From a virus (lineage: Duplodnaviria; Heunggongvirae; Uroviricota; Caudoviricetes), in the IMG/VR virus record IMGVR_UViG_2724679140_000013: a stretch of DNA of 37,432 nt, one strand, 5' to 3'. The translations under genes and the position numbers were made by a program. Below, in pieces: positions 2,998-36,516 of this stretch; within the stretch, counting starts at the first letter, position 1; each line of letters begins with the position of its first letter. The notes below the pieces were generated by a model, which was not told the origin of the DNA, did no database searches, and saw nothing but the letters and a program-made list of their open reading frames with translations.

Positions 2998-3360
2998 ATG
3001 AGCATCGCTATGAATAGAAATGCCACCTCCTCACGTTCTAAATACCGCAACGGGGCGGAACGCCATGCTAACCGTTTCGCTACCAGTGCATCACGCAGCA
3101 GCTCTCGCTACAGCCTGAGCGAAACACACGCAACACCGGATGGCCACGCTGTAAAACAAATCGGCGAGCATGCCTGGCTGATTGAGAAAGCTGGAATCGT
3201 GGTCCATAAATGCCCACGCAATCCGTTTACCGGAAACCGCATTTTTGCATTGAGCTGCGGCGACAATCAATTCGGGCAGGATTTCACATTATACGAAGCA
3301 CTTCGTACGGTTGATCGTCTGCTTCGCGGGCAAAGTTTTATTAAACAGGCTGATTTATAA
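2998..3360 (+). CDS. hypothetical early protein
   Basis: 120-aa ORF, tightly packed in early operon; start uncertain. Confidence 0.45.
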   Translation: MSIAMNRNATSSRSKYRNGAERHANRFATSASRSSSRYSLSETHATPDGHAVKQIGEHAWLIEKAGIVVHKCPRNPFTGNRIFALSCGDNQFGQDFTLYEALRTVDRLLRGQSFIKQADL

Positions 3361-3370
3361 CAGGTGAGTT

Positions 3371-3658
3371 ATGACCAAAGAGCATACACAAAGTGTATTT
3401 ATCCGTTTTATTGATTTTCGCGGTGAACTGTTATTACGCGCATCCGCTATTGATGGAGTGGCTCCGGCGGGTAAAAACGGAGCCGACGAAGCCACTTACG
3501 TTTATCTGAACGGCACGCGACTGCTTGTGGAACTTCCGTACCAGACCGTACGAGAAATCATTAGTGGAGCTGAAAAGGCACGCCAGGCTAATGGCGATGA
3601 ACCTTATATCGAAATTATTTGTATGGATTCAGAAGCAGAAATTCAGAAAGCAGATTAA
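3371..3658 (+). CDS. hypothetical early protein
   Basis: 95-aa ORF in early operon. Confidence 0.5.
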   Translation: MTKEHTQSVFIRFIDFRGELLLRASAIDGVAPAGKNGADEATYVYLNGTRLLVELPYQTVREIISGAEKARQANGDEPYIEIICMDSEAEIQKAD

Positions 3659-3669
3659 AGGGCGTTGCG

Positions 3670-3912
3670 ATGGGCAAAGAATATAAAACTCTCATTAACA
3701 AAGCACTTGAGCGTTTTTATTTTCGCTTAAGTGCATCAGGCGCTCATGCTGAACGTGCAGCCCGTGACTCATTGACCAGGGCAATCCGGAGTCTGTATGA
3801 CGTGGCTTTTTACGCTGATGATCTGGATGCACTTAACGAACTTTCCGAGCTGATCTGTGCCGCAGAATGCGGGGAACATATTGAACCGTATAAGCTGGGG
3901 AATATTGCATGA
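3670..3912 (+). CDS. hypothetical early protein
   Basis: 80 aa from ATG at 3670 (in-frame upstream ATG at 3619 overlaps previous gene). Confidence 0.45.
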   Translation: MGKEYKTLINKALERFYFRLSASGAHAERAARDSLTRAIRSLYDVAFYADDLDALNELSELICAAECGEHIEPYKLGNIA

Positions 3913-4022
3913 GTATATTTATCTCATGGCTTGTTCTGATTATTTCGGTGGCCTGCGCCATTGGGATTATGCGAATTATTCATTCAGTAAAAAAGATTGA
4001 ACGCTTTTTCACTGGCGAATAA
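3909..4022 (+). CDS. possible 37-aa single-TM membrane peptide
   Basis: ATG at 3909 overlaps upstream stop (ATGA coupling); translation MSIFISWLVLIISVACAIGIMRIIHSVKKIERFFTGE; below ORF-track size cutoff. Confidence 0.3.
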   Translation: MSIFISWLVLIISVACAIGIMRIIHSVKKIERFFTGE

Positions 4023-4108
4023 CAGAGCAAATAAAACCACAGGTTAAATAAGAAAATGTAAAAACAATCCGCATTCGCGGAGGTATTCGCACACGCCAAG
4101 GAGGCGTA

Positions 4109-4312
4109 ATGGCAATTAAGCATTTTCCTGTCGTTCGTTTTACCTCCAGAGGACGTGAATACGAAGTCGACGAACGCCTGATTACCACAATCGACAAACA
4201 CCGTTCAGAAAAGGATGCACATCACATCTATCTCACTGACGGCACTTACTTCTGCGCCACGAATGTGGTGCGGGTGAACCTTATCCGACAGGTACAGGAG
4301 TCACGCAGATGA
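4109..4312 (+). CDS. hypothetical early protein
   Basis: 67 aa; strong AAGGAGG SD upstream of ATG. Confidence 0.5.
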   Translation: MAIKHFPVVRFTSRGREYEVDERLITTIDKHRSEKDAHHIYLTDGTYFCATNVVRVNLIRQVQESRR

Positions 4313-4554
4313 CCATTCTGGACTATATCGCCGCCAATCCGGGGTGTAGCGGTGGAGAAATCGCCGCAGCACTGAATACCCCAACCACAGCCATTAATGC
4401 GGAGTTACGCCGACTCTGGCGCAGCGGTTCAGTCATAAGAAAAGAGCGCAAAACAGGCGGTCGCTTTTCTTACCAGATAAACCCGATGCCGTTCGGGTGC
4501 GGCAATCCACTTACCAACATGTTTAACCAGCTACTGAAGGAGGCCAGAGCATGA
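4309..4554 (+). CDS. hypothetical small protein, possible winged-helix DNA binder
   Basis: 81 aa; start overlaps upstream stop; GCSGGEIAAALNTPTTAINAELRRLWRSG resembles wHTH. Confidence 0.5.
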   Translation: MTILDYIAANPGCSGGEIAAALNTPTTAINAELRRLWRSGSVIRKERKTGGRFSYQINPMPFGCGNPLTNMFNQLLKEARA

Positions 4555-4850
4555 GCGCCATCAACCACCAGGAATTACGCGAACTGGCGATTGACCTGCA
4601 ACGAATGGCAACGCATCAAAAATTACTGGCGTTTCGCGCAATGCTCTCGCCGTCTGCCGTGCTGGCACTGCTGGATGAGCTGGAGCACGCCAGAACCATG
4701 TCTCCAGCCATTCGCCTGGCGCTCCATCATGAAATCGCTGATTTCTGCGCTCCACTGGGTTCGCCTGGTGAACCAGAAACGCCGGAAGCAATGCAACGAG
4801 AGCTACTGCAACGCATCGACAAGGTTTTTGATTTCTTCCTTAACCAGTAA
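4551..4850 (+). CDS. hypothetical early protein
   Basis: 99 aa; translationally coupled to upstream gene. Confidence 0.5.
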   Translation: MSAINHQELRELAIDLQRMATHQKLLAFRAMLSPSAVLALLDELEHARTMSPAIRLALHHEIADFCAPLGSPGEPETPEAMQRELLQRIDKVFDFFLNQ

Positions 4851-4861
4851 AGGACCGCGAT

Positions 4862-5065
4862 ATGAACAAAAAGACCTGGTTTCGCGCATACATGTGGGCG
4901 CTGGTATGCGTCCTCGTTTCTCTCATTCTGTATGCAGGACTACTCCCCCGAATGATTTCATCAGACAGCTCCTTCTTGGTATTGCTGGGCATTTTCATTG
5001 CCATGCTGTACCCGGCAGGCGTTGTTCGCCTTTTCAGTAAGTACATCAAGGAAATCAAACAATGA
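4862..5065 (+). CDS. small two-TM membrane protein, possible partner of downstream SPFH protein
   Basis: 67 aa; two hydrophobic helices (WALVCVLVSLILYAGLL and FLVLLGIFIAMLYPAGVV); stop overlaps start of next gene. Confidence 0.5.
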   Translation: MNKKTWFRAYMWALVCVLVSLILYAGLLPRMISSDSSFLVLLGIFIAMLYPAGVVRLFSKYIKEIKQ

Positions 5066-5892
5066 AGAAACTCAAACTCTTTCAGATTATCCCGCTTTTT
5101 GCCGCCATCCTGCTGGTTGGTTGCGATCGCGTTGAGCCAGGTAATGTGGGCATCAAAGTCAACAAACTGGGCGACGACAAAGGCGTCGGTGAAGTGGTTG
5201 GCGTTGGCCGCTACTGGACAGGCTGGAATACAGAGGTTTACATCTTCCCGACCTTCAAACAAATGAAGACCTACGATGAGCCGTTCAGCTTTCAGATGAG
5301 TGACGGCACAACCATCGGCTATCACATCGGTGTGGCCTACAAGGTTGATCCATCCAAAGTTACTACAGTGTTTCAGACCTACCGCAAAGGCGTGGACGAC
5401 ATTACCGACACTGACCTGCGCCAGAAGATCGCCGATGCACTCAACCGACTGGCCAGCAAAATGACCACCGATAAATTCATCGACGGTGGCAAGTCTGAAC
5501 TGCTGGATTCAGCACTTAAAGATATTCAGGAAGAGATGACCCCCATCGGTATTCAGGTCATGAGCCTCTCTTATGTCGGTAAACCGGAATATCCGCCAAC
5601 CGTTATCGACAGCATTAACGCCAAAGTCACGGCAAACCAGAAAACCCTGCAACGCGAACAGGAAGTCAAGCAACGCGAAGCAGAAGCCAACATGTTGCGC
5701 GCAGAAGCTGCCGGACAGGCTGATGCCATTCGCACAAAAGCCCAGGCTGAAGCCGACGCCATTCGTTTACGCGGTGAAGCTCTGCGCCAGAATCCCGGCG
5801 TTATGGAGCTGGAAGCAATCAACAAATGGAACGGCACGCTGCCGCAATACATGACCAGCAATACCGCTGTTCCGTTTGTTCCGGTGAAGTAA
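5062..5892 (+). CDS. SPFH/band-7 (HflC/prohibitin-like) domain lipoprotein
   Basis: 276 aa; lipobox LLVGC after signal peptide; SPFH-like core followed by Ala/Glu/Arg-rich coiled-coil (QREQEVKQREAEANMLRAEAAGQADAIRTKAQAEADAIRLRGEA) and C-terminal WNGTLP motif. Confidence 0.75.
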   Translation: MKKLKLFQIIPLFAAILLVGCDRVEPGNVGIKVNKLGDDKGVGEVVGVGRYWTGWNTEVYIFPTFKQMKTYDEPFSFQMSDGTTIGYHIGVAYKVDPSKVTTVFQTYRKGVDDITDTDLRQKIADALNRLASKMTTDKFIDGGKSELLDSALKDIQEEMTPIGIQVMSLSYVGKPEYPPTVIDSINAKVTANQKTLQREQEVKQREAEANMLRAEAAGQADAIRTKAQAEADAIRLRGEALRQNPGVMELEAINKWNGTLPQYMTSNTAVPFVPVK

Positions 5893-6057
5893 TTAAACCC
5901 GGCCAGTGAAAATCGCTGGCCGGAGCAGTATCAGGATTTTTTAGTATGCCGTTCTCACAAAAAAACCGCTTGCCATGCCGCAATCAGTCAGGTTACATTT
6001 CCGCTGCACCTCATAAAACGGGTGCCGGGATTGGAACCCCGCAGACTAACAGAGCGC

Positions 6058-6080
6058 ACAACCGCGCCAGCGGTTTTTTT
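6058..6080 (+). terminator. putative intrinsic terminator within the SPFH-to-A noncoding stretch
   Basis: short GC hairpin accgc-gcca-gcggt followed by T7 run. Confidence 0.4.
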
Positions 6081-6259
6081 GTGCGTACCGTATCGCCACG
6101 TCTTTTTCGCGTCAAAATTATGGTGGGGCGTACAGGGCCAGCATCAGCTGGGCCGGGTCCTCTGTTAGCCGGTAGTTCCAACCCTGTACGTCTCACCACC
6201 CCGAGCTTGGAACCTCTGGATGGTGAGTTTTCAAAACTGACTAACAGAGAGGCCACACC

Positions 6260-6487
6260 ATGGCAAACCGCAAACAGCGCGCATACGCTGCGCGTCGTCA
6301 CATCCAGACTGAAATCGACCGCAGACTTTCCCGCGCATTCCGCGTCGCTAAAATCATGCACATCAACATGCTGCATGAGCGTAGCTGCGAACTTTCAAAC
6401 CTCTACTCATCCGCTGTTTTCAGCTATCTGGCGGATGATCTGCGCGAGCTTCAACAGCTCATCCAGCAGCAAAACAAACTCCATTAA
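6260..6487 (+). CDS. hypothetical small basic protein
   Basis: 75 aa; GAGAGG SD upstream of ATG. Confidence 0.45.
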   Translation: MANRKQRAYAARRHIQTEIDRRLSRAFRVAKIMHINMLHERSCELSNLYSSAVFSYLADDLRELQQLIQQQNKLH

Positions 6488-6559
6488 TTCCTGTTCCGGG
6501 CCTTTCCTGCACCTTGCGGCGGGAGGCCTTCGCACATCTGTAACAAGAGGATTGCCGCA

Positions 6560-6925
6560 ATGATTCTCGCCAACGACTTTCTTGAATACCTGCTCAACAC
6601 AGAACGTGATCTTGCCGCTCGCGTGCGTGATCGTTATGACATGTACCTGAAATCCCTGCCTGTACCGCAACTCGCTGACGGAAAAATTGTTATTGATGGT
6701 CGCTACATGATTGACAGCCACGAGGGAAATTACAGGCTTTACCGCATTGAAGGTGGCACCCCGTCCGTTATTGGCATTTACCAGCGCCCATCCTCTGCAA
6801 TCGTCGATGTGATTGCCGACAGCATCCGCATCACACATCGCCATGCCGACACAGAAGACACCGTGCTGGAAATTCAGCGGCTGGCTGCCGTCTGCCGCGA
6901 CACCCTGAATGGCATGACGAAGTAA
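6560..6925 (+). CDS. hypothetical protein preceding replication gene
   Basis: 121-aa ORF immediately upstream of A. Confidence 0.5.
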   Translation: MILANDFLEYLLNTERDLAARVRDRYDMYLKSLPVPQLADGKIVIDGRYMIDSHEGNYRLYRIEGGTPSVIGIYQRPSSAIVDVIADSIRITHRHADTEDTVLEIQRLAAVCRDTLNGMTK

Positions 6926-9830: not shown

Positions 9831-10790
9831 ATGAAAATTTGTATCGATGACGGCTCCACCAACATCAAGCTGGCATGGACTGAGAACGGCGAACGCCGCA
9901 ACGCCATCAGCCCGAACAGCTTCAAGTCGGAATGGTCTGCGCCGTTCGGTGGAACGCAGCCCGCAAACTACATGCTTGATGGCGTGCGCTATGGTTTTGA
10001 TCCGGTCAGCGATCGCTTTGTCCAGACGACCGACACGCAATACCAGTACAGCGATGTGAATGTCATTGCCATTCATCACGCGCTGGTCAAATCAGGCATC
10101 ACACCACAGGAAGTGGATGTGGTTGTCACCCTGCCACTGAGCGAATATTTCGACACCAACGCACAGCCGGACATGGCCAACATCAACCGCAAAAAAGCAA
10201 ACGTCATGCGCCCGGTGGCGTACCAGAACGGAAAAGCATTCACTATCCGTAACGTACGGGTTATGCCTGAATCCATTCCGGCTGGTTTTAAAGCACTGGC
10301 TGACATGAGTCCGTTTGAATCCCTGCTGATTGTGGATTTAGGCGGAACCACGCTGGATGTGGCAAAGGTTCAGGGACAACTGGCAGGTATCAGCCAGGTG
10401 TTTTGCGATCCACACGTAGGCGTTTCCCTGATGGCCGATGCCGTACTGTCGGTGATGGCCACTAACGGTATGCGTACCAGTCACCACATCGCCAATACCA
10501 TTATCGAACATCGCCATGATGAAGCCTGGCTGCGCCAGCACATCCACAATGACGCGCATTACGCCAGCCTGATGGCGGTTATTCGTGAAAAGGAAGAAAC
10601 ACTGAAACAACGCGTGATCCGCGCGCTGGCGGGTTTTTCGGGTTACGGGCGGGTGATGGTTGTCGGTGGAGGGGCGGAGATTGTGGCACCCGCTATCCGC
10701 GAAGCCTGCGGAGTTAATGCGACTTTCATCGCGGACGGGGTGCCACAGTTTGCTCTGGTTAACGGGCTGTACGCAATGGACAAGGAGTAA
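9831..10790 (+). CDS. parM: ParM/StbA-type actin-like partition ATPase
   Basis: 319 aa; N-terminus MKICIDDGSTNIKLAW and motifs YSDVNVIAIHHAL, IVDLGGTTLD, VMVVGGGAEI closely resemble plasmid R1 ParM as I recall it. Confidence 0.85.
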   Translation: MKICIDDGSTNIKLAWTENGERRNAISPNSFKSEWSAPFGGTQPANYMLDGVRYGFDPVSDRFVQTTDTQYQYSDVNVIAIHHALVKSGITPQEVDVVVTLPLSEYFDTNAQPDMANINRKKANVMRPVAYQNGKAFTIRNVRVMPESIPAGFKALADMSPFESLLIVDLGGTTLDVAKVQGQLAGISQVFCDPHVGVSLMADAVLSVMATNGMRTSHHIANTIIEHRHDEAWLRQHIHNDAHYASLMAVIREKEETLKQRVIRALAGFSGYGRVMVVGGGAEIVAPAIREACGVNATFIADGVPQFALVNGLYAMDKE

Positions 10791-10794
10791 ACCA

Positions 10795-11109
10795 ATGACG
10801 ACACCAACCAGACGGATAAGTTTCTATCTGAAGCCAGCTGCAGTCAAGAGTGAACGGGAAGCGTGTAATTATCTCGACAGCCTGCCAGCCTCCGAACGCA
10901 GCCGCGCGCAACGCGCGGCATTTCTGGCTGGACTGGCACTCATTAAAAACGATCCTGCCTTTGCTTACTGGCTGGCTGAATGGTCAGAGGGGGAAAATAT
11001 GCCTGCCAACAATCACATATGGGGCTGGCATAACAGCGAGCCTGTTGGTTGCAAAAATCAGAATATAAGTCAAATAAAAAAGAATATTCAGGAATTTTTT
11101 CCTGAATGA
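10795..11109 (+). CDS. parR: ParR-like partition adaptor/repressor
   Basis: 104 aa from ATG at 10795 (AGGAG SD 7 nt upstream); RRISFYLKP...LDSLPASERSRAQRAAFLAGLALIKNDP resembles R1 ParR N-terminal RHH region; directly downstream of parM. Confidence 0.75.
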   Translation: MTTPTRRISFYLKPAAVKSEREACNYLDSLPASERSRAQRAAFLAGLALIKNDPAFAYWLAEWSEGENMPANNHIWGWHNSEPVGCKNQNISQIKKNIQEFFPE

Positions 11110-11113
11110 TCAC

Positions 11114-11140
11114 AAAAAGCATGGCTTTCGCCATGCTTTT
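11114..11140. terminator. intrinsic terminator after parR
   Basis: hairpin agcatggc-tttc-gccatgct flanked by A run upstream and T run downstream. Confidence 0.6.
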
Positions 11141-11429
11141 AAATATCAAATATCAGCTTCGCACTAGAAACGCCCAAGCTTTCCAGCCATACTCATGAGC
11201 ATCCAGCTTTCGACCAGAATCACCACGAACCTTACGGTATCGGCAAAACTGCCAACGAAATCCTTTCGGAGCCGGTTTTTTTACAATTGATTTCAAAGCC
11301 ATCCATAATCACCTCCTTACTGAGAATGATTTTTACCTTGATTATCTGCCTGGATTGACTAGAATCACAGTTGTACATGCAAAACATCAAGGTGATGATA
11401 TTTCTCAGACTATCATTCCTTTGTGTTGA

Positions 11430-11465
11430 AAAGCCCCTGACGGTTGGCCCCGTCAGGGGCTTAAT
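11430..11465. terminator. intrinsic terminator downstream of antitoxin gene (bidirectional potential)
   Basis: 10-bp GC-rich stem cccctgacgg / ccgtcagggg with flanking A/T runs. Confidence 0.6.
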
Positions 11466-11467
11466 AT

Positions 11468-11785
11468 TTATGCAACCTGACAGGAATGTTCTGCCGTCGC
11501 AGTAACAACCCCACCGGAATACCCAAACTTAAAATCCCACCCCAGGATGTTTAGCATGATAAACAGTCGATCAATGGTATGATTATCTAACTTACCATTA
11601 ATGATTTCGCTTACTCTTGGTTGGGTTGTTTCCAGCAATTCAGCAGCTTCTCGCTGGGTAAGACCGCGCTCCTGAATCATTTTTCGGATAATAACCATTA
11701 ATTGGGCCCGGATGTGTTTATCACTAGCTTCATTTACAGAGCTACTTGATGACGCATAAGGGTTTTTGACTACGACGAATTCCAT
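11468..11785 (-). CDS. HTH (XRE-type) antitoxin, HigA-like
   Basis: 105 aa; HTH GLTQREAAELLETTQPRVSEIINGK; directly downstream of the toxin gene. Confidence 0.75.
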   Translation of the reverse strand: MEFVVVKNPYASSSSSVNEASDKHIRAQLMVIIRKMIQERGLTQREAAELLETTQPRVSEIINGKLDNHTIDRLFIMLNILGWDFKFGYSGGVVTATAEHSCQVA

Positions 11786-11855
11786 AACTCTCCAGCCTTA
11801 ATCAGCGATGTTGCTGACATTGATTATGTTATATCAGATTTGAGATACCTGCAAG

Positions 11856-12257
11856 CTATCTTAAGCCATTTTTACGACGATACTCCACTAATTGTTTGTA
11901 TCTTGCGGCAGCTGTCTCATATTCTTTTTTTGACACACCATTTGTCTTTTTCTTAAATGTATGAAGTATGTAAACAGACTCCGCAAATTTCGCAACGTAA
12001 ATCATACGATAAGAATCACTACTCTTGATGGTTAATTGCATTGCGTAGCGACCAATCGTTTCCCGCATTGATTTTTTTTGAGCAGGTGGAACCCCCAAGG
12101 CATCATCACCATCCACTGGAAAATCGAAACTGTCGAAAGAATGAGGACAATCGCTCTGCAGTGCAACAAGCTCAAAATTTATCCTTTCTCGAACAGCTTC
12201 AGGATAACTATCAATTTGTTTCTGAATTTTATCATTCCAATATGTGATGTCTTTCAC
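11856..12257 (-). CDS. RelE/HigB-superfamily toxin (Gp49-like)
   Basis: 133 aa; C-terminal signature YRMIYVAKFAESVYILHTFKKKTNGVSKKEYETAAARYK typical of Gp49/HigB-like toxins; GTG start with GAGAGG SD. Confidence 0.75.
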   Translation of the reverse strand: MKDITYWNDKIQKQIDSYPEAVRERINFELVALQSDCPHSFDSFDFPVDGDDALGVPPAQKKSMRETIGRYAMQLTIKSSDSYRMIYVAKFAESVYILHTFKKKTNGVSKKEYETAAARYKQLVEYRRKNGLR

Positions 12258-27253: not shown

Positions 27254-30064
27254 TTAATCTTTATCGTAAAAACGGCCACGTCCGGCACGGTCACGTCGTT
27301 CCATTTCTGTCCTGACCATTTCACCGACCAGTTTCGCCAGTTCGCGGGGATTCTGCGTAACAACGTTATGCAGATGAACATGAATTTCACCACCAAATCC
27401 GGAGGCAACAGGCTCCCGGTTACGGGGAGGAGCAGGAACAGATGCCACTGGCGATCGTATGGCCTCCGCCACCGGGCGGGAGCTGGCAGCAACAACAGGG
27501 ACCAGCGCCGGAGGCAGCGGAGCCGGGACCACGGGTGTGATATTGATTGCGGGGGCAGGCTTACTGACCTGCGCAATCTTCCGCTCCTGCCACTCCCCAC
27601 GAACGGCAAGTGCGCGTGGCAGGTTCTTAAAGACAATATCGCCGGGGCCAATGCGTTTTTTCGTCTCATCAACCAGCTTACCTGTGTTATCAGCAATTTT
27701 GCTGAGTCTGCGTTGCGTACCGGTATTGCTGTCTGTGAGCGGTTTGTTGTCTTTGGGTTTATCGCCTCCGGTGCCATTTTCCGCTGGCTTCGGCGGATTG
27801 ATTTTCGCCAGATCCCCCTGAAGCAAGGCAACCTTATCCTGAAGAATGGCCGCACGCTGTGCGTCTTCGATTTTCTTTCTCGCCCTTTCCGCTTCATCCG
27901 GAAGCACACCGAGCTTTTCAAGTATCCACGCCAGCGTATCCAGCAGCATTTTTGCAGGCGTCAGAACAAGCTGTAGCGCACCACCAAGAACGTTACCAAA
28001 TACCTCGCCAGCACTGGTGCACTTATCCAGTGTTTCCTTGCTGGACTCCATCGGTGACAGCAGCGATTTAAACCAGTTAAACACCTGGCTGATCCCGCTT
28101 CCGATTATGTCAAAAACAGGGCCAAACCGTTCAAAGGTTTCACGCAGCGGAGCCAGCTTTTCCATAATTCCGCTGAACACCCCGGCAAAAAATGCCTTAA
28201 TCGGGTCCCAGTATTTCCAGATGAGAACCGCCGCAGCCACAAGTGCAGCAGCAACCAGACCAACCGGACTGAACAGCGTCCCGAGAGCACCGCCCAGCAA
28301 AGAGACGGAACCCGTCACCATTCCCCATAGTGCAGGCAACACCCTGACAACATTCATGGAACTGGTCAGAAGAGAAAAACCAAGACGCAACGTGGCCAGC
28401 TTCCCGTAAAGCACCCCAACAACCAGCGATAACGAGCCTACGGTTGCTGTCAATGCCAGCAGCGCACCGCCTGCAATCAGCAACTGGCGCGTCAGTACCG
28501 GATGGGCCTGTGCCAGCGCCGTCACCTTTGTGACCACACGCGTGAGCCACTGTGTGACAGAACGCAGCGGCCCATCAATCAGATCACTGATGCGAATACG
28601 CAGCCCTTCCCATGCGCTGCCGAGTGATTTCAGGTCGCCGTCAAGGTTGTCGGCCATAACCTTTGCTGTACGCTCTGCCTCACCGCGCGCAGCTTCAAGC
28701 TCTTTTCTCAGTTTGGGTAAGGAACCGTTACCCGCCGCATCAACGAGCGCCATAAACGATGTGAAAGCCTCTTCTCCGGCAATGTCCTTAAAGAACGATA
28801 CCCGGTCAACTTCCCCGTATTTGCGGGTGGCTTTATAAAGGTCGGCCAGCACATTCTCCATCGGGCGCATTTTGCCGTTCGCGTCAGAGACGGCCACACC
28901 CAGTTCTTTCAAAGCATCAGCGGTTGCCTTTGGCTGTGTTACCAGACGAGCCAGGCTGGCACGCATTGCCGTCCCGGCATCACTCCCCCTGATCCCCATA
29001 TTCGCCAGCACACCCGCCATTGCTGCGGCCTGCTCCAGCGATATTCCCAGCTTGCCCGCCACCGGACCTGCATATTTCATGGTTTCACCCAGTGCGCGAA
29101 GGTCAGTGTTGGTTCGGGTAAACGCTGCGGTGAGTGTGTCACCGACCCGGTCCATCTGGTCAGCAGAAAGGCCGAACTGCGTCAGGATATTTGAGCCAAT
29201 ATCCGCCGTCTCGCCGAGGTCCATACCGCCAGCCGTTGCCATGTTCAGCACGCCGGGAAGCGCAGCCTGAATGGCTTCTGGTGTGAAGCCAGCCATTGCC
29301 AGAAAGCTCTGTCCACTGGCGGCATCGCCTGCGGTGAACTGTGTTTCAGAGCCAAGTTTTAACGCCTGCTCACGCAGCGCCTTAAACTGCGGGCTGTTTT
29401 TGTCGATTCGCGTCAGTGCCTGAACGCGGGACATCTCTTTCCCGAACCCGATGGCAGGCTGTAAAAAACGCCCGGCAGCATAGCCGCCAGCCGCTGCCGC
29501 GCCAATTGCCAGCGCACCACCCGTTTTCAGTTTTCCCGCTGTTTCCTGCGCGCGCGAATACCGCTCACGCGCCCGTGTTACACGCGCAAGCGCCTGCCGT
29601 TCGCGTTCAAGCTGGTTGTTGTATTGTTCGGTGCGTCTGATGGCCTGCTGGATGGTGTTATCGCTACCTGTCAGGGAAATGCCGTGGCGTTTCAGCTCTC
29701 CGCCAAGTTCCCGCATTTTCTGAATTTCCCGTGTGCGCGATTCGTTCAGGCGTTCAAGCCGGGTGCTTAACTGCTGCATCAGCTTTTGTTGTTTTTCGCT
29801 GAGCACTGTCCCCGAGCGTTGTAACTGTTGAAGGGCGTTAAGCTGGCGTCGTGCTTTCACGATGCCCGCATCCGCTTTACTGACAGCGTCACGGGCGCGC
29901 TCAAATGAACGCGCCTGACGCTCAAGATTTTTGATCGCCCCCTGCGTTCGCTGGATGGAGTCACCAAACTGTCCCATCAGACGGCGGGCGCTTTCGACAG
30001 GCCGGGTCAGCCTGTCAACGGCGCTGAAAGCGACCCGGATATCAAGAGTCTTCATTGTCTGCAT
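27254..30064 (-). CDS. T: tail tape measure protein (P2 gpT family)
   Basis: about 936 aa; coiled-coil N-terminus, Gly/Ala-rich TM-like middle, typical tape-measure composition; start uncertain (candidates ATG 30064, ATG 30055, GTG 30091). Confidence 0.85.
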   Translation of the reverse strand: MQTMKTLDIRVAFSAVDRLTRPVESARRLMGQFGDSIQRTQGAIKNLERQARSFERARDAVSKADAGIVKARRQLNALQQLQRSGTVLSEKQQKLMQQLSTRLERLNESRTREIQKMRELGGELKRHGISLTGSDNTIQQAIRRTEQYNNQLERERQALARVTRARERYSRAQETAGKLKTGGALAIGAAAAGGYAAGRFLQPAIGFGKEMSRVQALTRIDKNSPQFKALREQALKLGSETQFTAGDAASGQSFLAMAGFTPEAIQAALPGVLNMATAGGMDLGETADIGSNILTQFGLSADQMDRVGDTLTAAFTRTNTDLRALGETMKYAGPVAGKLGISLEQAAAMAGVLANMGIRGSDAGTAMRASLARLVTQPKATADALKELGVAVSDANGKMRPMENVLADLYKATRKYGEVDRVSFFKDIAGEEAFTSFMALVDAAGNGSLPKLRKELEAARGEAERTAKVMADNLDGDLKSLGSAWEGLRIRISDLIDGPLRSVTQWLTRVVTKVTALAQAHPVLTRQLLIAGGALLALTATVGSLSLVVGVLYGKLATLRLGFSLLTSSMNVVRVLPALWGMVTGSVSLLGGALGTLFSPVGLVAAALVAAAVLIWKYWDPIKAFFAGVFSGIMEKLAPLRETFERFGPVFDIIGSGISQVFNWFKSLLSPMESSKETLDKCTSAGEVFGNVLGGALQLVLTPAKMLLDTLAWILEKLGVLPDEAERARKKIEDAQRAAILQDKVALLQGDLAKINPPKPAENGTGGDKPKDNKPLTDSNTGTQRRLSKIADNTGKLVDETKKRIGPGDIVFKNLPRALAVRGEWQERKIAQVSKPAPAINITPVVPAPLPPALVPVVAASSRPVAEAIRSPVASVPAPPRNREPVASGFGGEIHVHLHNVVTQNPRELAKLVGEMVRTEMERRDRAGRGRFYDKD

Positions 30065-30571
30065 TCCCGCTGCGAAGTGCCGCCCGCTCACGCCAGCTAA
30101 CCACTTCGCCGGGCGTCATCATGAAGATTTCGGCGGGCGACCAGTTAAAAATAACGGCAATATCTGCCACAAAGTCTTCTATGTGCTCAAAGCACAAAAC
30201 TGTGATCAGGCTTCCGTCGCCTGTTCGTTCTTCCCGCCAGAGTCCGCACCGCTCAAAAAATTTACGGCAACCACGCATAACTGAATAAAGTCACGGGATG
30301 CCATTTTTTTGATCGTCACTTCATCCAGTCGCGGTGATGTCACGCGTGACAGCAGCGTAAACATGGATTCCGCTTTCAGATTCAGCACATCAGACAGCGA
30401 CAAATCTCGCAGAGATCCAGCCTGCTCAATAGCCCCGGTGATCTCCACAAACGTGATTTTTTCGCCGCCACGCTCAATGGGTTGGGTAAGTTTTACGCCA
30501 CGCTCACTGGTTTCTTTCACAGTATCAGCAACTACCGTGTTTTCGGTATCGATGTTTTTCGTCTCTTTCAT
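30042..30571 (-). CDS. E+E' fusion product by programmed -1 frameshift
   Basis: second ORF in -1 frame (open from 30290 to stop at 30042) overlaps E; slippery heptamer T_TTT_TTG in E frame at 30260-30254; E' C-terminus overlaps T start as in P2. Confidence 0.6.
30206..30571 (-). CDS. E: tail assembly chaperone E (P2 gpE family)
   Basis: 121 aa; AAGGAG SD; contains slippery site near 3' end. Confidence 0.75.
   Translation of the reverse strand: MKETKNIDTENTVVADTVKETSERGVKLTQPIERGGEKITFVEITGAIEQAGSLRDLSLSDVLNLKAESMFTLLSRVTSPRLDEVTIKKMASRDFIQLCVVAVNFLSGADSGGKNEQATEA
30254..30260 (-). other. -1 ribosomal frameshift slippery heptamer TTTTTTG
   Basis: minus-strand T_TTT_TTG in E reading frame; shifted frame continues KFFERCGLW... 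to 30042. Confidence 0.6.
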
Positions 30572-30625
30572 CAGGAAACTCCTTTCAGTCAGAGGCGACG
30601 CACTGCGCCGCCTGCATATTACTTA

Positions 30626-31138
30626 TCAGCCAAGCCCAAGTGCGGAACGGATGCGATCGGGCACAATGTCCTTACCGTCCTTCCGGTAAATGAAGTTCAG
30701 CAGGTCAATCTCCCACAACGGACGATCGTTAACGCTCAGCTTGTAGTAGGTGTTTTTAATGGCGTAAGTGTGCGACGTGGCTTCGCCCTGCTTGGCTTCC
30801 CCCATATCAATTTCCGTCACACGTCCGCGCATTTCGACTTCATACAGGTCGCTTTCTGCATCGGTGTAGTATTCGCCCGCAAAACGCAGCAGCGTGCCGT
30901 CAATCGTGCCGCCATACTTAAGGAACAGCTCACGAACTGCGCCCCCCATGACAAAGCTCGCATCAAGCGCGGAGTCGTCCAGACCGAGATCAATACTTAC
31001 CGCGCCCATCATGCCACCACCCCGGTAGCTGTCGGTTTTGCGCGTCAGTTTAGGCAGGGTGACAGACGTCACCTTACCCACTTCGTTTTCACCATCCACA
31101 AACAGCGTAAAAAAGCGAAGATGTTTTGGTACAGCCAT
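30626..31138 (-). CDS. FII: tail tube protein (P2 gpFII family)
   Basis: 170 aa; ATG overlaps FI stop (ATGA). Confidence 0.9.
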   Translation of the reverse strand: MAVPKHLRFFTLFVDGENEVGKVTSVTLPKLTRKTDSYRGGGMMGAVSIDLGLDDSALDASFVMGGAVRELFLKYGGTIDGTLLRFAGEYYTDAESDLYEVEMRGRVTEIDMGEAKQGEATSHTYAIKNTYYKLSVNDRPLWEIDLLNFIYRKDGKDIVPDRIRSALGLG

Positions 31139-32322
31139 CAGGCACCTCCCAGAACCGCAAATGCGGGTCCAAAGAATTCATCAGTAAACGACTGGTAAAG
31201 TTCCATGTCTTCCAGTGGAGGAGCTGGCGTATATTTGTAGCGAATACGCACCCGCCCCTGACGTAAATCCGTGGTGCCGTTATCCACCACGTCATACCAG
31301 CACGACGCCCCAATCAGTTTCCCGGCAGTAACCAGTGAATCCAGTTTTGCCCTGACGGCACTGATAACATCCTTCACATTCACGGGTGTTAATGGGCTGT
31401 CAATGGTTTCAAACTGCGCTTCCGCAATCGTGTCAGCCAGGACCTGTGCGGTACGGGTATACACCTCAAAGATGTAGGCTTTTGTTTCCGGTGTGCGGTT
31501 GCCCCAGAAGCGGAACCCGTTGCGACGAATAATGGTCGTGATTTCCTGGTTGTTGAGGCTGTTGGCATCACTGCCTTCGGCCTGCAACGACCAGAACACA
31601 TGTCTGGACATTCCCAGCACATTTTTAACCGGAACGTTGGACAGCGATTTGTGCCAGCCCTGCTCATGGTCAATGTACGCACGAAGGCCGCACGCATAGG
31701 CAGGCGCGGGGAACACTTCGTTTTTGCCACTTTTCGGGTTCCAGGCGATGAAGTCCGGCCATAAGAGCATCACCTCACGTTCGTTGAATTTCTGGCGGTA
31801 GGTAATTGCCTCAGCCATCGTGTTACAGCCGTGACATGAGGCATACACAAACGCGCGCAGTTTACCCGCAATCACGCACAGGGATTTTGTTACCGCCTCC
31901 GTGTCCAGCTCCGGCGCGGCCAGAATACGCGGACGGTATCCGATGCTTTCCTCCTGCTCTGCAACAAGCAGCGCATACATCCCCGTATAGCTGCCGTCAG
32001 ATTCAGAACCACCGATAACCAGTTGATCCTGCGTCTTACCGCCCTCTTCTTTGTGTTCAGCCACGCGAACGACGATCACCTTTGTGCTCACCTGGTCTGC
32101 GATAGCCTTAAGCGCACGATAAAGCGTCCCCGTTGTTCCGCATTTTCCCAGCACGTCATTGACGCGGGTCAGCAGTGTGGGCTTGTTCAGCGGGAACAGC
32201 TTCGCGTCCGCATCATCCGCCGTTGCCACGATACCGATAACACTGGAATCAACATCGTTAATCGCTGTTACCAGGTCGGTATTTTCCGTAACACGGGCAC
32301 CATGAAAACGAGTTTCACTCAT
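31138..32322 (-). CDS. FI: contractile tail sheath protein (P2 gpFI family)
   Basis: 394 aa; multiple conserved blocks (FPLNKP, RILAAPELDT, LRAF.Y, WPDF.AW, QGWHK.LSNV, FRFWGNRT, YTPAPPLE) match P2 FI; AAGGGG SD. Confidence 0.9.
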   Translation of the reverse strand: MSETRFHGARVTENTDLVTAINDVDSSVIGIVATADDADAKLFPLNKPTLLTRVNDVLGKCGTTGTLYRALKAIADQVSTKVIVVRVAEHKEEGGKTQDQLVIGGSESDGSYTGMYALLVAEQEESIGYRPRILAAPELDTEAVTKSLCVIAGKLRAFVYASCHGCNTMAEAITYRQKFNEREVMLLWPDFIAWNPKSGKNEVFPAPAYACGLRAYIDHEQGWHKSLSNVPVKNVLGMSRHVFWSLQAEGSDANSLNNQEITTIIRRNGFRFWGNRTPETKAYIFEVYTRTAQVLADTIAEAQFETIDSPLTPVNVKDVISAVRAKLDSLVTAGKLIGASCWYDVVDNGTTDLRQGRVRIRYKYTPAPPLEDMELYQSFTDEFFGPAFAVLGGA

Positions 32323-32479
32323 AGCTTCAGCCCCTTGTATCCGTTAAATGATTAGGCAACAATCATCACCCACCACGCGCGTAATCTCACCCCTGCGCCA
32401 TTCTCCCGCCACGGCGACAACAAAAAGCAGTAACCCCCTCCGCACGCACATGCGACCATGCCGCACAGGGAGGGAACAG
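32323..32479. promoter_or_regulatory. divergent intergenic region between FI (minus) and D (plus); expected late promoters
   Basis: 157-bp gap between divergently oriented late genes; no clear Ogr-type dyad recognised. Confidence 0.3.
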
Positions 32480-33589
32480 ATGACCGACACCACCATGCAA
32501 TTGCTCAGTCAGGGCACAGACCCTGTAAAAATGCCGGATTTTGATATTCTCGCGGAGGGTAAAACGCTGTCAGGCGTGGCAGAGCGCCTGATGAGCCTGT
32601 CACTGACCGACAACCGTGGATTTGAGGCGGACCAGCTCACCATCACGCTGGATGATGCGGATGGTCAGTTGCAGCTACCGCCACGGGGCGCGCGCCTGAC
32701 GGTTCTCATTGGCTGGAAAGGAGAACCGCTGACAGAAAAAGGCACTTACATTGTTGATGAAATCGCTCACGAAGGACCGCCGGACAGGCTGACTGTTTCA
32801 GCCAGAAGCGCAGATTTTCGGGATGAATTTAACGTTAAACGTGAGGTGTCCTGGCATGATGTGACCGTTGAGCGTGTGGTATCCGCCATCGCTCATCGGT
32901 ACGGTCTGAAACCACAAATCAGCGAAATACTGATGGATATTGAAATCGACCACGCCGACCAGACCGAAGAAAGCGACATGTCCTTCCTTACGCGCATGGC
33001 GGAAATGCTGGGCGCAATCACCACGGTAAAAAGCGGTAATCTGTTATTCATCATGCCTGGCGGTGGCGTGAACGCACAGGGCCAGCCGTTGCCCTCATTC
33101 GCCATCACACGCAGCAGTGGCGATCGCCATCAGTTCCGCATTGCTGACCGCGAAGCGTATACGGGGGTACGCGCTTACTGGCTTGATCTTAATTACGGGA
33201 AAAAGAAAAAAGTCAGCGTGAAACGCCGCAAACCGCCAAAACCCAAAAAGGAGAAAAGCAGCAGCCGTGAAGGTGATTATATGGAAGGCGCGGAAGGCAA
33301 TGTGTTTGTGTTACGCAAGACTTATCAGAACGAGCAGGCAGCAAGACGCGCAGCGGCGGCGAAGTGGCAGCAGCTACAACGCGGAGCCGCATCATTCTCC
33401 ATCACGCTGGCACGTGGACGAGCAGAACTCTACCCCGAAATGCATGGCACGGTAACAGGATTTAAAAGCGAGATTGATAATCAGGACTGGATTATTGCAA
33501 AAGCCGAGCACACCATTGATAACAGTGGTTTTACCACACAGCTTGAGCTTGAAGCAAAAATCCCGGAATGGATAGCAGAAACAGAGTGA
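32480..33589 (+). CDS. D: tail protein D (P2 gpD family, late control D)
   Basis: 369 aa from ATG at 32480 (GGGAGGG SD); typical gpD features including basic KKKKVSVKRRKPPKPKK patch. Confidence 0.85.
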   Translation: MTDTTMQLLSQGTDPVKMPDFDILAEGKTLSGVAERLMSLSLTDNRGFEADQLTITLDDADGQLQLPPRGARLTVLIGWKGEPLTEKGTYIVDEIAHEGPPDRLTVSARSADFRDEFNVKREVSWHDVTVERVVSAIAHRYGLKPQISEILMDIEIDHADQTEESDMSFLTRMAEMLGAITTVKSGNLLFIMPGGGVNAQGQPLPSFAITRSSGDRHQFRIADREAYTGVRAYWLDLNYGKKKKVSVKRRKPPKPKKEKSSSREGDYMEGAEGNVFVLRKTYQNEQAARRAAAAKWQQLQRGAASFSITLARGRAELYPEMHGTVTGFKSEIDNQDWIIAKAEHTIDNSGFTTQLELEAKIPEWIAETE

Positions 33590-33715
33590 ACAACCTCGAC
33601 GTTTTACTTAATATACAATAGCCTTCTGGACACGGTAAGGCAAGAACAAGGGTAAAAGATCCTTTACTGTCAGAGTTACAGGTTATACCTGTAAGCAAAA
33701 ACAAAGGCATATATT

Positions 33716-34474
33716 ATGTTCAGTTTATTTTCGTTAACTGCCGGAGCAAATGTGCGCTGGCATGATTTACCTGGTAAAGGTATTCCTGTTGTTTTTATTC
33801 ATGGGCTTGGCTGTTCCTCTTCTTATGAATATCCACGGGTTGTTGCAGATCCTGCATTTGGTGGACAACGAGCGATATTGATAGATCTCCCTGGATATGG
33901 ATTCAGTGATAAGCCTAAAGGATTCGATTACAGCATATCCCATCAAGCTAAAGTTGTTATTGAAGTAGTAGAAACCTTAAATCTCTCACAGTTCCATATT
34001 TATGGTCACAGTATGGGGGGAAGTATTGCGATTGAAGTGGCCAGACAACTACATGAGAGAACAAGAAAGCTTGTGGTTTCTGAGCCTAATTTTCACTCTG
34101 GTGGAGGTACCTATAGCCGTAAGATAATAGAGAAACCAGAAGCAGAGTTTATTTCGCATATATATAATGAATTACTGGAGTGTGAAACATCCCCATGGAA
34201 AGGTGAACTCCAGAATGCAGCCCCATGGGCAATATGGCGAGGAGCCAAAAGTCTGGTTGATGGAACCACTCCATCATGGAGAGATATATTCCTTAATCTG
34301 CCCTGTTCACGTACACTAATTTTTGGCGAACAATCATTGCCAGACAATGATTTCCAGCAAATAAAAGAATCTGGAATATCTGTTGCAATAGTGCCAAACG
34401 CTGGACACTCCATGTCATGGGAAAATCCATCAGCACTGGCCTCAATTTTACATACAGAATTTTATAGAAAGTAA
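33716..34474 (+). CDS. alpha/beta-fold hydrolase (esterase/lipase-like), AT-rich cargo gene
   Basis: 252 aa; nucleophile elbow GHSMGG, N-terminal HGLG oxyanion-region motif; markedly lower GC than flanking phage genes. Confidence 0.8.
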   Translation: MFSLFSLTAGANVRWHDLPGKGIPVVFIHGLGCSSSYEYPRVVADPAFGGQRAILIDLPGYGFSDKPKGFDYSISHQAKVVIEVVETLNLSQFHIYGHSMGGSIAIEVARQLHERTRKLVVSEPNFHSGGGTYSRKIIEKPEAEFISHIYNELLECETSPWKGELQNAAPWAIWRGAKSLVDGTTPSWRDIFLNLPCSRTLIFGEQSLPDNDFQQIKESGISVAIVPNAGHSMSWENPSALASILHTEFYRK

Positions 34475-34520
34475 AATAACCTATACATAGATATTGTTTC
34501 CACCAACATCATATTATCAA

Positions 34521-34553
34521 AGAGCAGGGCAAATTTACCTCCTGCTCTTTTAC
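34521..34553 (+). terminator. intrinsic terminator after hydrolase gene
   Basis: hairpin agagcagg ... cctgctct followed by TTTT. Confidence 0.55.
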
Positions 34554-34827
34554 TCAAATTAGATGATTTTATAGCACACATTTTATGAAATATTTAAAAT
34601 CTATAAACTTATAAGAACATTTTTTATCAAAACACATACATAATGAACAATCTCTTTTATCATAATTAGTAAATTATCACTTGATAATAAATGACATACT
34701 AAATATGCATCAGGGTTAATTTTTATTAATAGATAAACGTCCATGCCTCAATCTGACCTGATTGTTGATTGGCATATTCACTAGTACAATTTAAAATCAC
34801 GATAGCAGCACATTAAGGGAGGTCGCT

Positions 34828-35088
34828 ATGTTTCGTTGTCCGCTTTGTGGCGCATCTGCCCGTATCCGCACCAGTCGTCCGGAAAATGATTCAAACACCG
34901 TGCGGCAAAAGTATTACCAGTGTAACAACCTGGAATGCGGCGTATGCTTCTCAACACTGGAAGCTTTCCATAAATTCACATCAAAACACGCCTCCGGCGT
35001 TCACTCTTCAGAAGGTATCCCGTGGCATGAGCTGCCAGCTTCACACAGGGGAAACAATCAGATGAGTTTGCCTTTACCTCAGAATTAA
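34828..35088 (+). CDS. ogr: Ogr/Delta-type zinc-finger late transcription activator
   Basis: 86 aa; MFRCPLCGASARIRTSR ... YYQCNNLECGVCF (CxxC...CxxC) closely resembles P2 Ogr; AAGGGAGG SD. Confidence 0.85.
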   Translation: MFRCPLCGASARIRTSRPENDSNTVRQKYYQCNNLECGVCFSTLEAFHKFTSKHASGVHSSEGIPWHELPASHRGNNQMSLPLPQN

Positions 35089-35277
35089 CAGGCAGAATTG
35101 CCGGAGTAACAAAAAAGCGATAGATTACGTGCGGGTGCCTTTCGGCTGATGGTCGGAGGGAATACCCGAAGGCCGGATGTGGAAAGGCCCCGGAAAACAT
35201 TTCTGTTTAACCGAGGCCCTAACCCGTCAACCTAGCAAGTGATAGGTTAGCGCCTCTCCAACAAAGGAGCAAGCGCT

Positions 35278-35418
35278 ATGTCGCAAAAATCGCTTACGGC
35301 CATCACGTTCTGCGTGACGGTAATCCTCATCATCTGGATGCTGCACGGTTCGCTGTGTGAAATACGGATGAGCTTCTGGGGAGCGGAGTTTGCGGCGTTC
35401 TTACAGTGTAAGCAGTAA
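35278..35418 (+). CDS. Hok/Gef-family type I toxin-like small membrane protein
   Basis: 46 aa (below ORF-track cutoff): MSQKSLTAITFCVTVILIIWMLHGSLCEIRMSFWGAEFAAFLQCKQ; N-terminal TM helix and SLCEIR...E.AAF signature of Hok family; AAGGAG SD 9 nt upstream. Confidence 0.6.
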   Translation: MSQKSLTAITFCVTVILIIWMLHGSLCEIRMSFWGAEFAAFLQCKQ

Positions 35419-35607
35419 GGAAACCGCGACGGGGAGGCAACTCCCCGTCAATCGGTTGCCAGGGTAAGGCCGATAAGGCACCCTATCTCATAGGCATGAA
35501 TAACAACCCCACAGCGTAAAAACTGCGGGATTTCTTTTTGGGACTCTCACTAGCTAGTGAGCTGTTAACTGCACATAATGCTCGCACAACAAATCATTTA
35601 AAAGAGA

Positions 35608-35889
35608 TTACTCAGCATTCTCCTGCTTCCATTGCCGGATCATTTCATCGGTAACATCACTTTCATAACATACCACGTCATACCCTCCAGTACGGCTATA
35701 TGCACTGCGTCCACCACATCTACTACCATTCCTTGCATGATTATACGGACACGCACAATTGCCTGGATAAGATTCAATGGATTCTTTAATTATTTCTTTC
35801 TTGATCTGAGCGTCTGACTTTCCTGTTGCTGCATACCCACTAAAAGATACCAAACACAGGCAGATTGCCATTAATAAACCACATCGCAT
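35608..35889 (-). CDS. hypothetical small secreted cysteine-containing protein
   Basis: 93 aa from ATG at 35889: signal-peptide-like MRCGLLMAICLCLVSFSGYAATG then six-Cys mature region; upstream in-frame extension in ORF track unlikely. Confidence 0.5.
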   Translation of the reverse strand: MRCGLLMAICLCLVSFSGYAATGKSDAQIKKEIIKESIESYPGNCACPYNHARNGSRCGGRSAYSRTGGYDVVCYESDVTDEMIRQWKQENAE

Positions 35890-36139
35890 ACCGATACACT
35901 CTATTACTAACCAATCATAGCCCACATCATAAAATCGAGATGAGGAGTACAGCACCTTTAACAAGAAGGTGCCATCACGATAATATGCCGTGCAATTCAT
36001 CAAAAAAAAGATCTATATCAAAGAGATAGAGTTATTATCAGTGCTGCAGACATCAGCATTCGAGGCAGCAGAAAGACAGTAAATCTAACGAATTTGTCTT
36101 TTTCTCAGGATGTTCTCAGATTAAAAAAGATAGAGTAGC

Positions 36140-36260
36140 GTAGACACCTTTTGGTGGATGGTAGGAGGAAAAATGAAGTTGAGTGGGAAGATCCCAGAAA
36201 AAACTTTGGTTTAACCAAGGCCCTAGTTCAATATGCGAAATGCAGATGAGTTGCAGGAGA
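36140..36260 (+). other. second, degenerate copy of the hok-type 5' leader (no intact toxin ORF seen)
   Basis: about 70% identity by eye to 35130-35240 (shared gatggtNggagg and gaaaaacNtttNgtttaaccNaggccctag blocks) but no downstream SLCEIR-type ORF. Confidence 0.35.
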
Positions 36261-36360
36261 GTTTTGCTTCACCCTTAGAGTTTAAACAGACGTGTACTAT
36301 CATTATTTCTGCATATCGCCACACCATCGCCACTTTACCGCCATTTAACAAAATACAAAT

Positions 36361-36390
36361 ACAAAAAAACCACCCGAAGGTGGTTTCACG
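36361..36390 (-). terminator. intrinsic terminator of glyW-cysT-leuZ operon
   Basis: on minus strand hairpin aaaccacc-ttcg-ggtggttt followed by T7; 40 nt downstream of leuZ 3' end. Confidence 0.6.
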
Positions 36391-36429
36391 ACACTGCTTA
36401 TTGCTTTGATTTTATTCTTATCTTTCCCA

Positions 36430-36516
36430 TGGTACCCGGAGCGGGACTTGAACCCGCACAGCGCGAACGCCGAGGGATTTTAAATCCCTTGTGTCTACCG
36501 ATTCCACCATCCGGGC
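36430..36516 (-). tRNA. leuZ: tRNA-Leu (anticodon UAA)
   Basis: 87 nt; reverse complement reads GCCCGGATGGTGGAATCGGTAGACACAAGGGATTTAAAATCCC...GGGTACCA with anticodon loop TTTAAAA. Confidence 0.95.

Follow-up and report, generated by a model that had tools for sequence, protein, structure and literature searches.

The locus between D and ogr

The window analysed in the present study, the 37,432-nucleotide stretch of IMG/VR virus record IMGVR_UViG_2724679140_000013, is an almost complete P2-family prophage of Escherichia coli, and the subject of this report is a gene for a 252-amino-acid alpha/beta-fold serine hydrolase carried between its genes D and ogr. The integrase gene (1-1002, minus strand) comes first, followed by replication gene A, the portal gene, the tail genes as far as D, and then ogr and hok/sok; a tRNA-Leu/Cys/Gly cluster and then a host gene, taken to be pgsA, lie beyond. 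Gene D, encoding the tail or late control D protein (32480-33589, plus strand; Pfam Phage_GPD, PHROG 52; start approximate, at Met45 of the open reading frame (ORF) 32348-33589), forms the left border of the locus. The right border is ogr (34828-35088, plus strand), encoding the Ogr/Delta zinc-finger late-gene activator, as recognized by Pfam Ogr_Delta (E 5e-14) and by the RefSeq annotation of the identical locus in the mouse isolate E. coli M8, whose chromosome matches the 3.07-kb D-to-hok stretch with 100% identity. In M8 the locus is found at 2272998-2274235 of NZ_CP019953. The hydrolase ORF occupies 33716-34474 on the plus strand and encodes the nucleophile motif GHSMGG with Ser99, together with His231, an invariant Glu123 and the oxyanion-loop motif HGLGC; the presence of a GxSxG hydrolase of this length between the two genes had been predicted from the sequence alone and was borne out, with Pfam scores above cut-offs.

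The closest phages are P88-like (Xuanwuvirus/Gemsvirus) and not P2 proper. The adjacency of D and ogr to which the sequence-only reading referred holds for these relatives (P88, PhiR44_2, Shae_phiSM, Chuche and P884B11), while its choice of P2 as the reference was corrected. The D gene is 96-98% identical to that of P88 and its relatives up to the stop codon at 33589, where the homology to P88 stops; it picks up again at window position 34788. Based on BLAST breakpoints against P88, 500465-2 and 520873, the DNA absent from the empty P88-type slot thus spans 33590-34787 (plus strand; 1198 bp; guanine-plus-cytosine (GC) content 0.37) and consists of a leader, the hydrolase gene, a terminator and an AT-rich spacer. 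The insert had been placed at 33590-34827; its start was correct, and its end was set too far to the right. An intrinsic-terminator-like hairpin (AAAGAGCAGG / CCTGCTCTTT; 34519-34550) followed by a T-tract (together 34519-34554, plus strand) confirms that the gene has a terminator of its own, with a folding energy of -14.6 kcal/mol and a z-score of -5.1, and none of 200 shuffled sequences was equally stable. The GC content falls from approximately 0.54 in D to 0.39-0.42 over the hydrolase ORF and to 0.285 in 34400-34799. The comparison with the phage core that had been suggested as a check placed the hydrolase gene far from the phage in composition: its GC content is 0.41 and its GC at third codon positions (GC3) is 0.28, compared with a GC3 of 0.56 in D and 0.60 in the sheath gene, and the cargo as a whole lies at a GC of 0.37-0.41 against 0.52-0.54 for the core. 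The insert thus shows three properties of a moron: a foreign composition, a terminator of its own, and conserved flanks around a site where close relatives lack the gene.

The distribution of the gene leads to the same conclusion. A query comprising D, cargo, ogr and hok matched 1646 of 5426 complete E. coli genomes (approximately 30%; part of these matches are partial), and the hydrolase was present in only five of the 5426. Presence of the gene in all related phages with a phage-like composition would have spoken against cargo status; instead, five of the 1646 backbone-matching genomes hold it, the slot is variable and the composition is foreign, so that the status of the gene as cargo is strongly supported. 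When 35 evenly spaced loci with both flanks matched were sampled, the slot was empty in 21 and filled in 14 (approximately 40%). Four of the filled loci carry, by annotation, one gene each between D and ogr, encoding a TIR (minus strand), a PIN (plus), a DUF3800 (minus) or a YecA-family (plus) protein, and other AT-rich cargos occupy the slot in phages 500465-2 (a 340-amino-acid HEPN-like protein) and 520873 (a 132-amino-acid hypothetical protein). The D/ogr junction is a sharply bounded hotspot for single-gene cargo.

The five hydrolase genomes hold three alleles (100%, 96.7% and 90.9% DNA identity), which sit in prophages at different chromosomal integration sites. Because the gene is rare and has no known phenotype, it might be regarded as a neutral hitch-hiker with no current function; however, the ORF and the catalytic residues are intact in all three alleles, with a DNA difference of at most 9% across the insert, and the ratio of nonsynonymous to synonymous substitution rates (dN/dS) among them is 0.16-0.43, indicating that the gene is maintained by selection. 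Moreover, in the divergent allele of strain 06-00048 the terminator stem has been kept through a compensatory A-T to G-C change. Neutral carriage is therefore very unlikely, and the cassette is foreign in composition, rare and under purifying selection.

In known phage hotspots, short AT-rich cassettes of one to a few genes are inserted at a fixed point between conserved genes, and near-identical phages show a high turnover of cargo that is frequently defence-like (PMC9122126; bioRxiv 10.1101/2024.10.15.618418). The D/ogr slot resembles these hotspots in its short AT-rich cassette, fixed site, conserved flanks and high turnover. It differs in its insertion point, which in the P88-like (Xuanwuvirus/Gemsvirus) lineage is bounded precisely by the stop codon of D and the promoter of ogr, and in that the present cargo is an enzyme with no defence annotation. 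In the hotspot literature examined, including the two reports above, no explicit description of a D/ogr slot and no mention of ogr were found; the slot could be mined as the hotspots of P2 and P4 have been. The company the gene keeps raises the possibility that the hydrolase serves anti-phage defence or competition between phages, breaking down a lipid or a small molecule, either made by a phage or used in signalling, and thereby blocking superinfection. The hotspots of P2-family phages are an established source of defence genes (PMC9122126; bioRxiv 10.64898/2026.02.27.708500), the sister prophages hold single TIR, PIN, DUF3800 and HEPN-like genes in the slot, and the hydrolase cargo is AT-rich as the other slot genes are; however, the slot also takes cargo that does not look like defence, such as YecA.

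The junctions of the cargo were also inspected. Imperfect short repeats of the form ACAAC(C/T)T(C/A)GA, with only 6-7 of 10 positions matching, were observed at both ends (window 33590-33600 and 34784-34797), and the empty junction of P88, AACTTAGAATAGCG (1688-1735 of the P88 stretch), resembles a fusion of these flanking repeats, which hints that empty slots arise through microhomology deletion. A longer direct repeat of the 3' end of D at 34633-34654 (17 of 22 positions) was dropped, as it lies at the chance level that we estimate for an AT-rich region of 1.4 kb.

The hydrolase and its relatives

The protein matches Pfam Abhydrolase_1 (E 7.5e-21; 75.3 bits against a gathering threshold of 25.8) and Abhydrolase_6 (E 1.2e-17; 65.7 bits against 26.3). 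A search of 5.8 billion proteins returned 484 homologues, and nearly all of the named ones are annotated just as "alpha/beta hydrolase". In an alignment of 71 homologues, G97-H-S99-M-G101, H231 and E123 are invariant. Glu123 lies in the motif S-E-P-N, following strand beta6, and is the only invariant acid nearby; the position after beta7 at which an Asp is usually found (G-x-x-D) reads G204-E-Q-S207, with a near-invariant Ser207 and no acid at the canonical place. We infer a Ser-His-Glu triad in which the acid has been relocated to beta6. The AlphaFold model (mean predicted local distance difference test score, pLDDT, 94.6) shows an eight-stranded alpha/beta core with a helical cap.

The sequence-only reading had considered an esterase or lipase acting on the host envelope, or else a lysogenic-conversion function. 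The matched PHROG families are indeed labelled "esterase/lipase", and the protein weakly matched lipases as well as 6I8W, the structure of a membrane phospholipase A. However, no signal peptide, lipobox or transmembrane segment was seen in the sequence or the model, although no dedicated signal-peptide predictor was run; the N-terminus, MFSLFSLTAGANVRW, forms core strands (E2-6 and E11-18) with a pLDDT of 95-98, and the first 28 residues belong to the core beta-strands, so that a signal peptide is absent. The structural neighbours are all soluble esterases or hydrolases, and the best are small soluble short-chain esterases. An envelope-modifying esterase is thus the most improbable of the explanations weighed herein, and this part of the prediction was not upheld.

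Comparison with characterized enzymes placed the protein near several groups and inside none. First, the short-chain carboxyl and aryl esterases among the neighbours (Thermogutta esterase 4UHC, EaEST 5H3H and the Pseudomonas fluorescens aryl esterase 1VA4) share just 16-21% identity with it, and in contrast to them the hydrolase has Ser207 at the usual Asp position and Glu123 after beta6 as the only invariant acid. Second, the best sequence E-values (4e-17 to 1e-9) were obtained with the C-C hydrolases CumD, MhpC and BphD over the N-terminal half (residues 9-121); however, the match ends before the cap domain, and these enzymes have G-N-S-x-G-G where the hydrolase has GHSMGG. An identity as a meta-cleavage-product hydrolase was rejected, since the nucleophile motif differs and the scores were 38 bits against a cut-off of 462 for TIGR03343 and 48 against 400 for HsaD. 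Third, the top Foldseek match was DhaA (HaloTag), with a template-modelling score of 0.78. DhaA has the triad Asp106-His272-Glu130, with its catalytic Glu after strand beta6, and Glu123 of the hydrolase has the same placement. A haloalkane dehalogenase was nevertheless rejected, as Ser99 replaces the Asp nucleophile and the NCBIfam models gave 50-54 bits against cut-offs of 241-466. The named esterases of the E. coli type, BioH, MenH, RutD, YbfF and PcaD, were likewise rejected (NCBIfam 25-62 bits against cut-offs of 207-399). Among antimicrobial-resistance-type NCBIfam models, the best match was a macrolide esterase (20 bits against a cut-off of 420). By homology, the enzyme is a member of an uncharacterised Enterobacterales hydrolase family.

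Relatives were found in more than 60 Enterobacterales species in a scan with one genome per species. At approximately 33 of these loci, the ATG is preceded at a distance of 32-41 nt by an exact CTGT-N8-ACAG, compared with a chance expectation of 0.003 per 200 nt, and two further loci, in Klebsiella pneumoniae and Kosakonia cowanii, have a CCAG half-site (approximately 35 in total). The genera with this LexA box include Enterobacter, Leclercia, Klebsiella, Raoultella, Kosakonia, Pseudocitrobacter, Scandinavium, Lelliottia, Buttiauxella, Pluralibacter and Cedecea. The consensus of the box, TACTGTATAAAAACACAGT, overlaps a TATAAA -10 hexamer downstream of a conserved TAGCAT/TGGCAT -35. The chromosomal orthologues are thus very probably LexA-repressed. 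In the usual chromosomal context, an ortT-like toxin gene is followed by the hydrolase gene and by srfCBA on the opposite strand, and there is no operon partner. A literature search for an SOS-controlled alpha/beta hydrolase found no paper.

In a neighbour-joining tree, the phage alleles stand beside a patchy clade of 70-79% identity, comprising sequences from Citrobacter murliniae, the Lelliottia/"Enterobacter 638" group, Serratia, Yersinia and Salmonella, and this patchy clade, which has itself lost the box, is nested among the clades with LexA boxes. The tree indicates that the phage cassette descends from the chromosomal LexA-operator family of the Enterobacterales and that the box was lost in the phage copy. 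A reading of the Enterobacter sp. 638 copy as the cargo of a second prophage was rejected because related genomes keep the right neighbours and differ in their left islands; the gene is probably chromosomal and lies beside an integration hotspot. The constant right neighbours in this group are genes for a PTR2 peptide transporter, a methyltransferase and a GGDEF protein, and the variable left side is a prophage, an integrase with CTD6/MC2 genes or a UvrD-helicase island. One contig of the group carries a DUF1706 (ClbS-like) gene near the hydrolase gene.

The family has also been mobilized by a transposon. In several Salmonella assemblies, a homologue with 79% identity is the only passenger of a 4.68-kb Tn3-family unit (tnpA, tnpR, hydrolase) with 37-bp terminal inverted repeats, GGCCTA(G/A)TGGGAGCGAAGCTGCAAAATGCGACATCTG, and the unit occurs at two insertion sites, each flanked by a different 5-bp target duplication, TAAAA or AGACA (unit at 2178-6852 of both stretches). 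The textbook single-passenger Tn3-family transposon is Tn3 itself with blaTEM. The Salmonella unit has the same organization of tnpA and tnpR plus one gene, with inverted repeats and 5-bp duplications, and differs from Tn3/blaTEM in that its passenger is not a known resistance gene. A copy with 79.5% identity is carried on two 193-kb Salmonella plasmids.

These observations bear on the defence explanation introduced above. A conserved single gene that keeps the same non-island position (ortT-hydrolase-srfCBA) across many genera and is preceded by a LexA box is not the pattern of a defence system, and the status of Tn3 passenger is a pattern typical of resistance genes. The hydrolase has no partner, sensor or effector domain, and no model of PADLOC-DB, which covers known defence systems, matched the protein at E <= 0.01. 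Taken together with the defence-like occupants of the slot, this leaves a role in defence or inter-phage competition rather unlikely.

Expression signals and the remainder of the prophage

The leader of the hydrolase gene contains a perfect 8-3-8 palindrome, TTACAGGTTATACCTGTAA (TTACAGGT-TAT-ACCTGTAA), at 33676-33694, exactly where it had first been noticed, which corresponds to positions -40 to -22 from the ATG. It is located where the chromosomal orthologues have the LexA box, and the phage copy thus differs from LexA-regulated (SOS) enterobacterial genes in carrying an unrelated palindrome at this site. The palindrome itself was rejected as a LexA box, as its sequence is unrelated and it has no T-run. 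It may be an operator for a protein other than LexA, with a possible resemblance to the GGT-N3-ACC operators of the GntR/FadR type. Several results call for caution. The palindrome is identical in the three E. coli alleles, which is weak evidence given that the whole leader is 96-100% conserved, and 11 of 100 shuffled sequences contained at least one similar site with three or fewer mismatches. Neither the rest of the window nor the immunity region of the prophage contains a related arrangement of half-sites, and no such palindrome was found at homologous loci outside E. coli. The pattern TACAGGT-N3-ACCTGTA occurs in 107 scattered contigs of IMG/VR, approximately the chance number by our own rough estimate. 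A Shine-Dalgarno-like AAAGG is read at 33703-33707 (plus strand), 8 nt upstream of the ATG.

The signals around the gene would also be compatible with a late-expressed auxiliary enzyme for the lytic cycle, serving for example host takeover or lysis and transcribed only as the tail of the late operon ending in D. The hydrolase gene shares the orientation of D with no terminator in between, the search of the leader gave no convincing promoter (a lone TACAAT at 33614-33619 has a poor -35), and the hydrolase terminator closes the unit. However, the gene is missing from more than 99% of close phages, whose cycle evidently completes. Related genes reside on chromosomes or transposons and are not phage genes; only two close copies were seen in IMG/VR, each in a P88-like phage, and the GenBank phage records gave a single distant match of 29.5% identity. 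We regard an auxiliary lytic function as quite unlikely, slightly more so than a role in defence.

Downstream of the terminator lies an AT-rich non-coding spacer (34555-34744; GC 0.285). In the divergent allele, identity is approximately 72% in the 3' spacer, compared with 97% in the ORF, and no Rfam family was found in the spacer; the sole Rfam match in 33400-36450 is sok at 35133-35288, which scores 47 bits, under the gathering score of 59. The spacer is followed by a conserved segment upstream of ogr (34745-34827, plus strand) with a sigma-70-like promoter matching 10 of 12 consensus positions (-35 TTGGCA at 34769-34774, a 17-nt spacer and -10 TAAAAT at 34792-34797). The 60-90 nt upstream of ogr are common to all eight aligned filled slots, which carry different cargos, and contain an invariant TTGG in the -35, followed by a 17-nt spacer and a TAxAAT -10. 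Therefore, the last 60-90 nt of the spacer belong to the backbone and not to the cargo, and the earlier view of the entire AT-rich spacer as insert stands with regard to its composition and fails for this final part. In the empty slot of P88, the -10 of ogr (TAGAAT) is retained and there is no -35, because the D stop codon sits 6 nt (GGAACT) upstream of the -10 hexamer.

The remainder of the prophage was also surveyed. A 99.99%-identical metagenomic viral contig of IMG/VR (3300005460_000378), compared with window 28716-36484 plus 1-685, joins window position 36484, inside tRNA-Leu, to position 1, at the integrase stop codon, across approximately 106 nt. This join is the attP junction of an excised or circular phage, which places the right prophage end near 36484, and the phage appears able to excise. 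The hok/sok-type module (35133-35418; hok ORF 35278-35418) directly downstream of ogr is backbone-conserved in all relatives. Near the prophage end, an AT-rich ORF (35608-36003, minus strand) encodes a small protein with a signal-peptide-like N-terminus, several cysteines and the motif CACPYNHARNGSxCGxRSA (PHROG 27544); in Kosakonia, homologues of this protein adjoin the chromosomal hydrolase locus, possibly by coincidence. A second AT-rich island (1008-2073, minus strand; GC 0.36), with two ORFs of 128 and 215 amino acids for which no Pfam or PADLOC match was found, lies between the integrase gene and the HTH repressor and is probably the cargo of an int/repressor hotspot. The classical old/tin hotspot (9831-12257), which separates replication gene A from the portal gene, holds a ParM-type actin-like segregation protein (9831-10790) and a HigB(Gp49)/HigA(HTH_37)-like toxin-antitoxin pair (11468-12257, minus strand) in an island of GC 0.41. 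The early region also encodes a protein of the SPFH/Band-7 family (5062-5892, plus strand).

A proposed role in detoxification

Herein, we propose that the hydrolase gene is a one-gene moron in the D/ogr slot of a P88-like prophage and that it encodes a self-sufficient cytoplasmic detoxifying hydrolase, an interpretation that we consider moderately probable. The same gene has been kept alone by a phage, a transposon and a fixed chromosomal locus; therefore, it needs no partner and should benefit the cell directly. A more specific version is tentative and, in our estimation, still doubtful, namely that the enzyme inactivates a harmful, probably genotoxic, small molecule through ester, lactone or amide hydrolysis. 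The SOS control of the ancestors suggests a DNA-damaging compound as the target. The hydrolase would most likely act in the cytoplasm on some small harmful molecule by cleaving an ester, thioester, lactone or aryl-amide linkage, and destruction of a genotoxin would protect the lysogen and spare the prophage an unwanted induction. As an enzyme of benefit to the host, it would possibly represent lysogenic conversion in a broad sense.

With regard to expression, the gene would be weakly transcribed from its own leader, possibly gated by a factor that binds the palindrome. After induction, late transcription through D would read into the hydrolase gene, because the leader has no good promoter and D is followed by no terminator. 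The terminator of the cargo would then halt this read-through, and ogr would be expressed from the promoter at 34769-34797. In P2, late transcription of the F-E-T-U-D operon reportedly also reads through into ogr, a finding attributed to Birkeland and co-workers in 1991. A cargo bearing a terminator therefore makes a dedicated ogr promoter necessary, and all of the aligned filled slots have one.

Several points weigh against the proposed role. First, the biochemical identity of the enzyme is poorly constrained: neither fold nor sequence favours one group among esterases, perhydrolases, dehalogenases, lactonases and epoxide hydrolases, which match at 15-23% identity, all NCBIfam equivalog scores lie far under their cut-offs, and no substrate class could be assigned from the fold, hidden Markov model or homology searches, so that the substrate-class prediction that had been recommended as a check yielded none. 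The case for Glu123 as the triad acid consists of its conservation. Second, the leader (33590-33715) yielded no sigma-70 promoter that agrees with the consensus at 9 or more of 12 positions, and expression of the hydrolase in the lysogen is as yet a prediction. Third, there is no LexA operator upstream of the hydrolase gene in the window, and the SOS link is ancestral only. Finally, other cargos of the slot look defence-like, which favours the competing explanation discussed above, and the detoxification role is itself an indirect deduction.

As it stands, the locus is a routine case of modular cargo exchange in a temperate phage. A bolder view, which we advance as speculation and consider improbable, is that the family is an undescribed SOS-regulon enzyme of the Enterobacteriaceae that inactivates a DNA-damaging natural product and has been captured by phages and by a Tn3-family transposon as a portable "anti-induction" or resistance gene. 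If this were true, candidate targets would include a gyrase poison of the oligo-arylamide class (albicidin/cystobactamid type) or a different genotoxin made by rival gut bacteria, and the portable gene would shield the lysogen from killing or from forced induction of the prophage. The independent mobilization of the family by phage and transposon is a pattern typical of resistance and detoxification determinants. The two side results most worth following up are the LexA box found in the chromosomal family and the copy carried as a Tn3 passenger. The family is an uncharacterised group of serine hydrolases with a LexA box in many clinically relevant genera, Enterobacter, Klebsiella and Raoultella among them.

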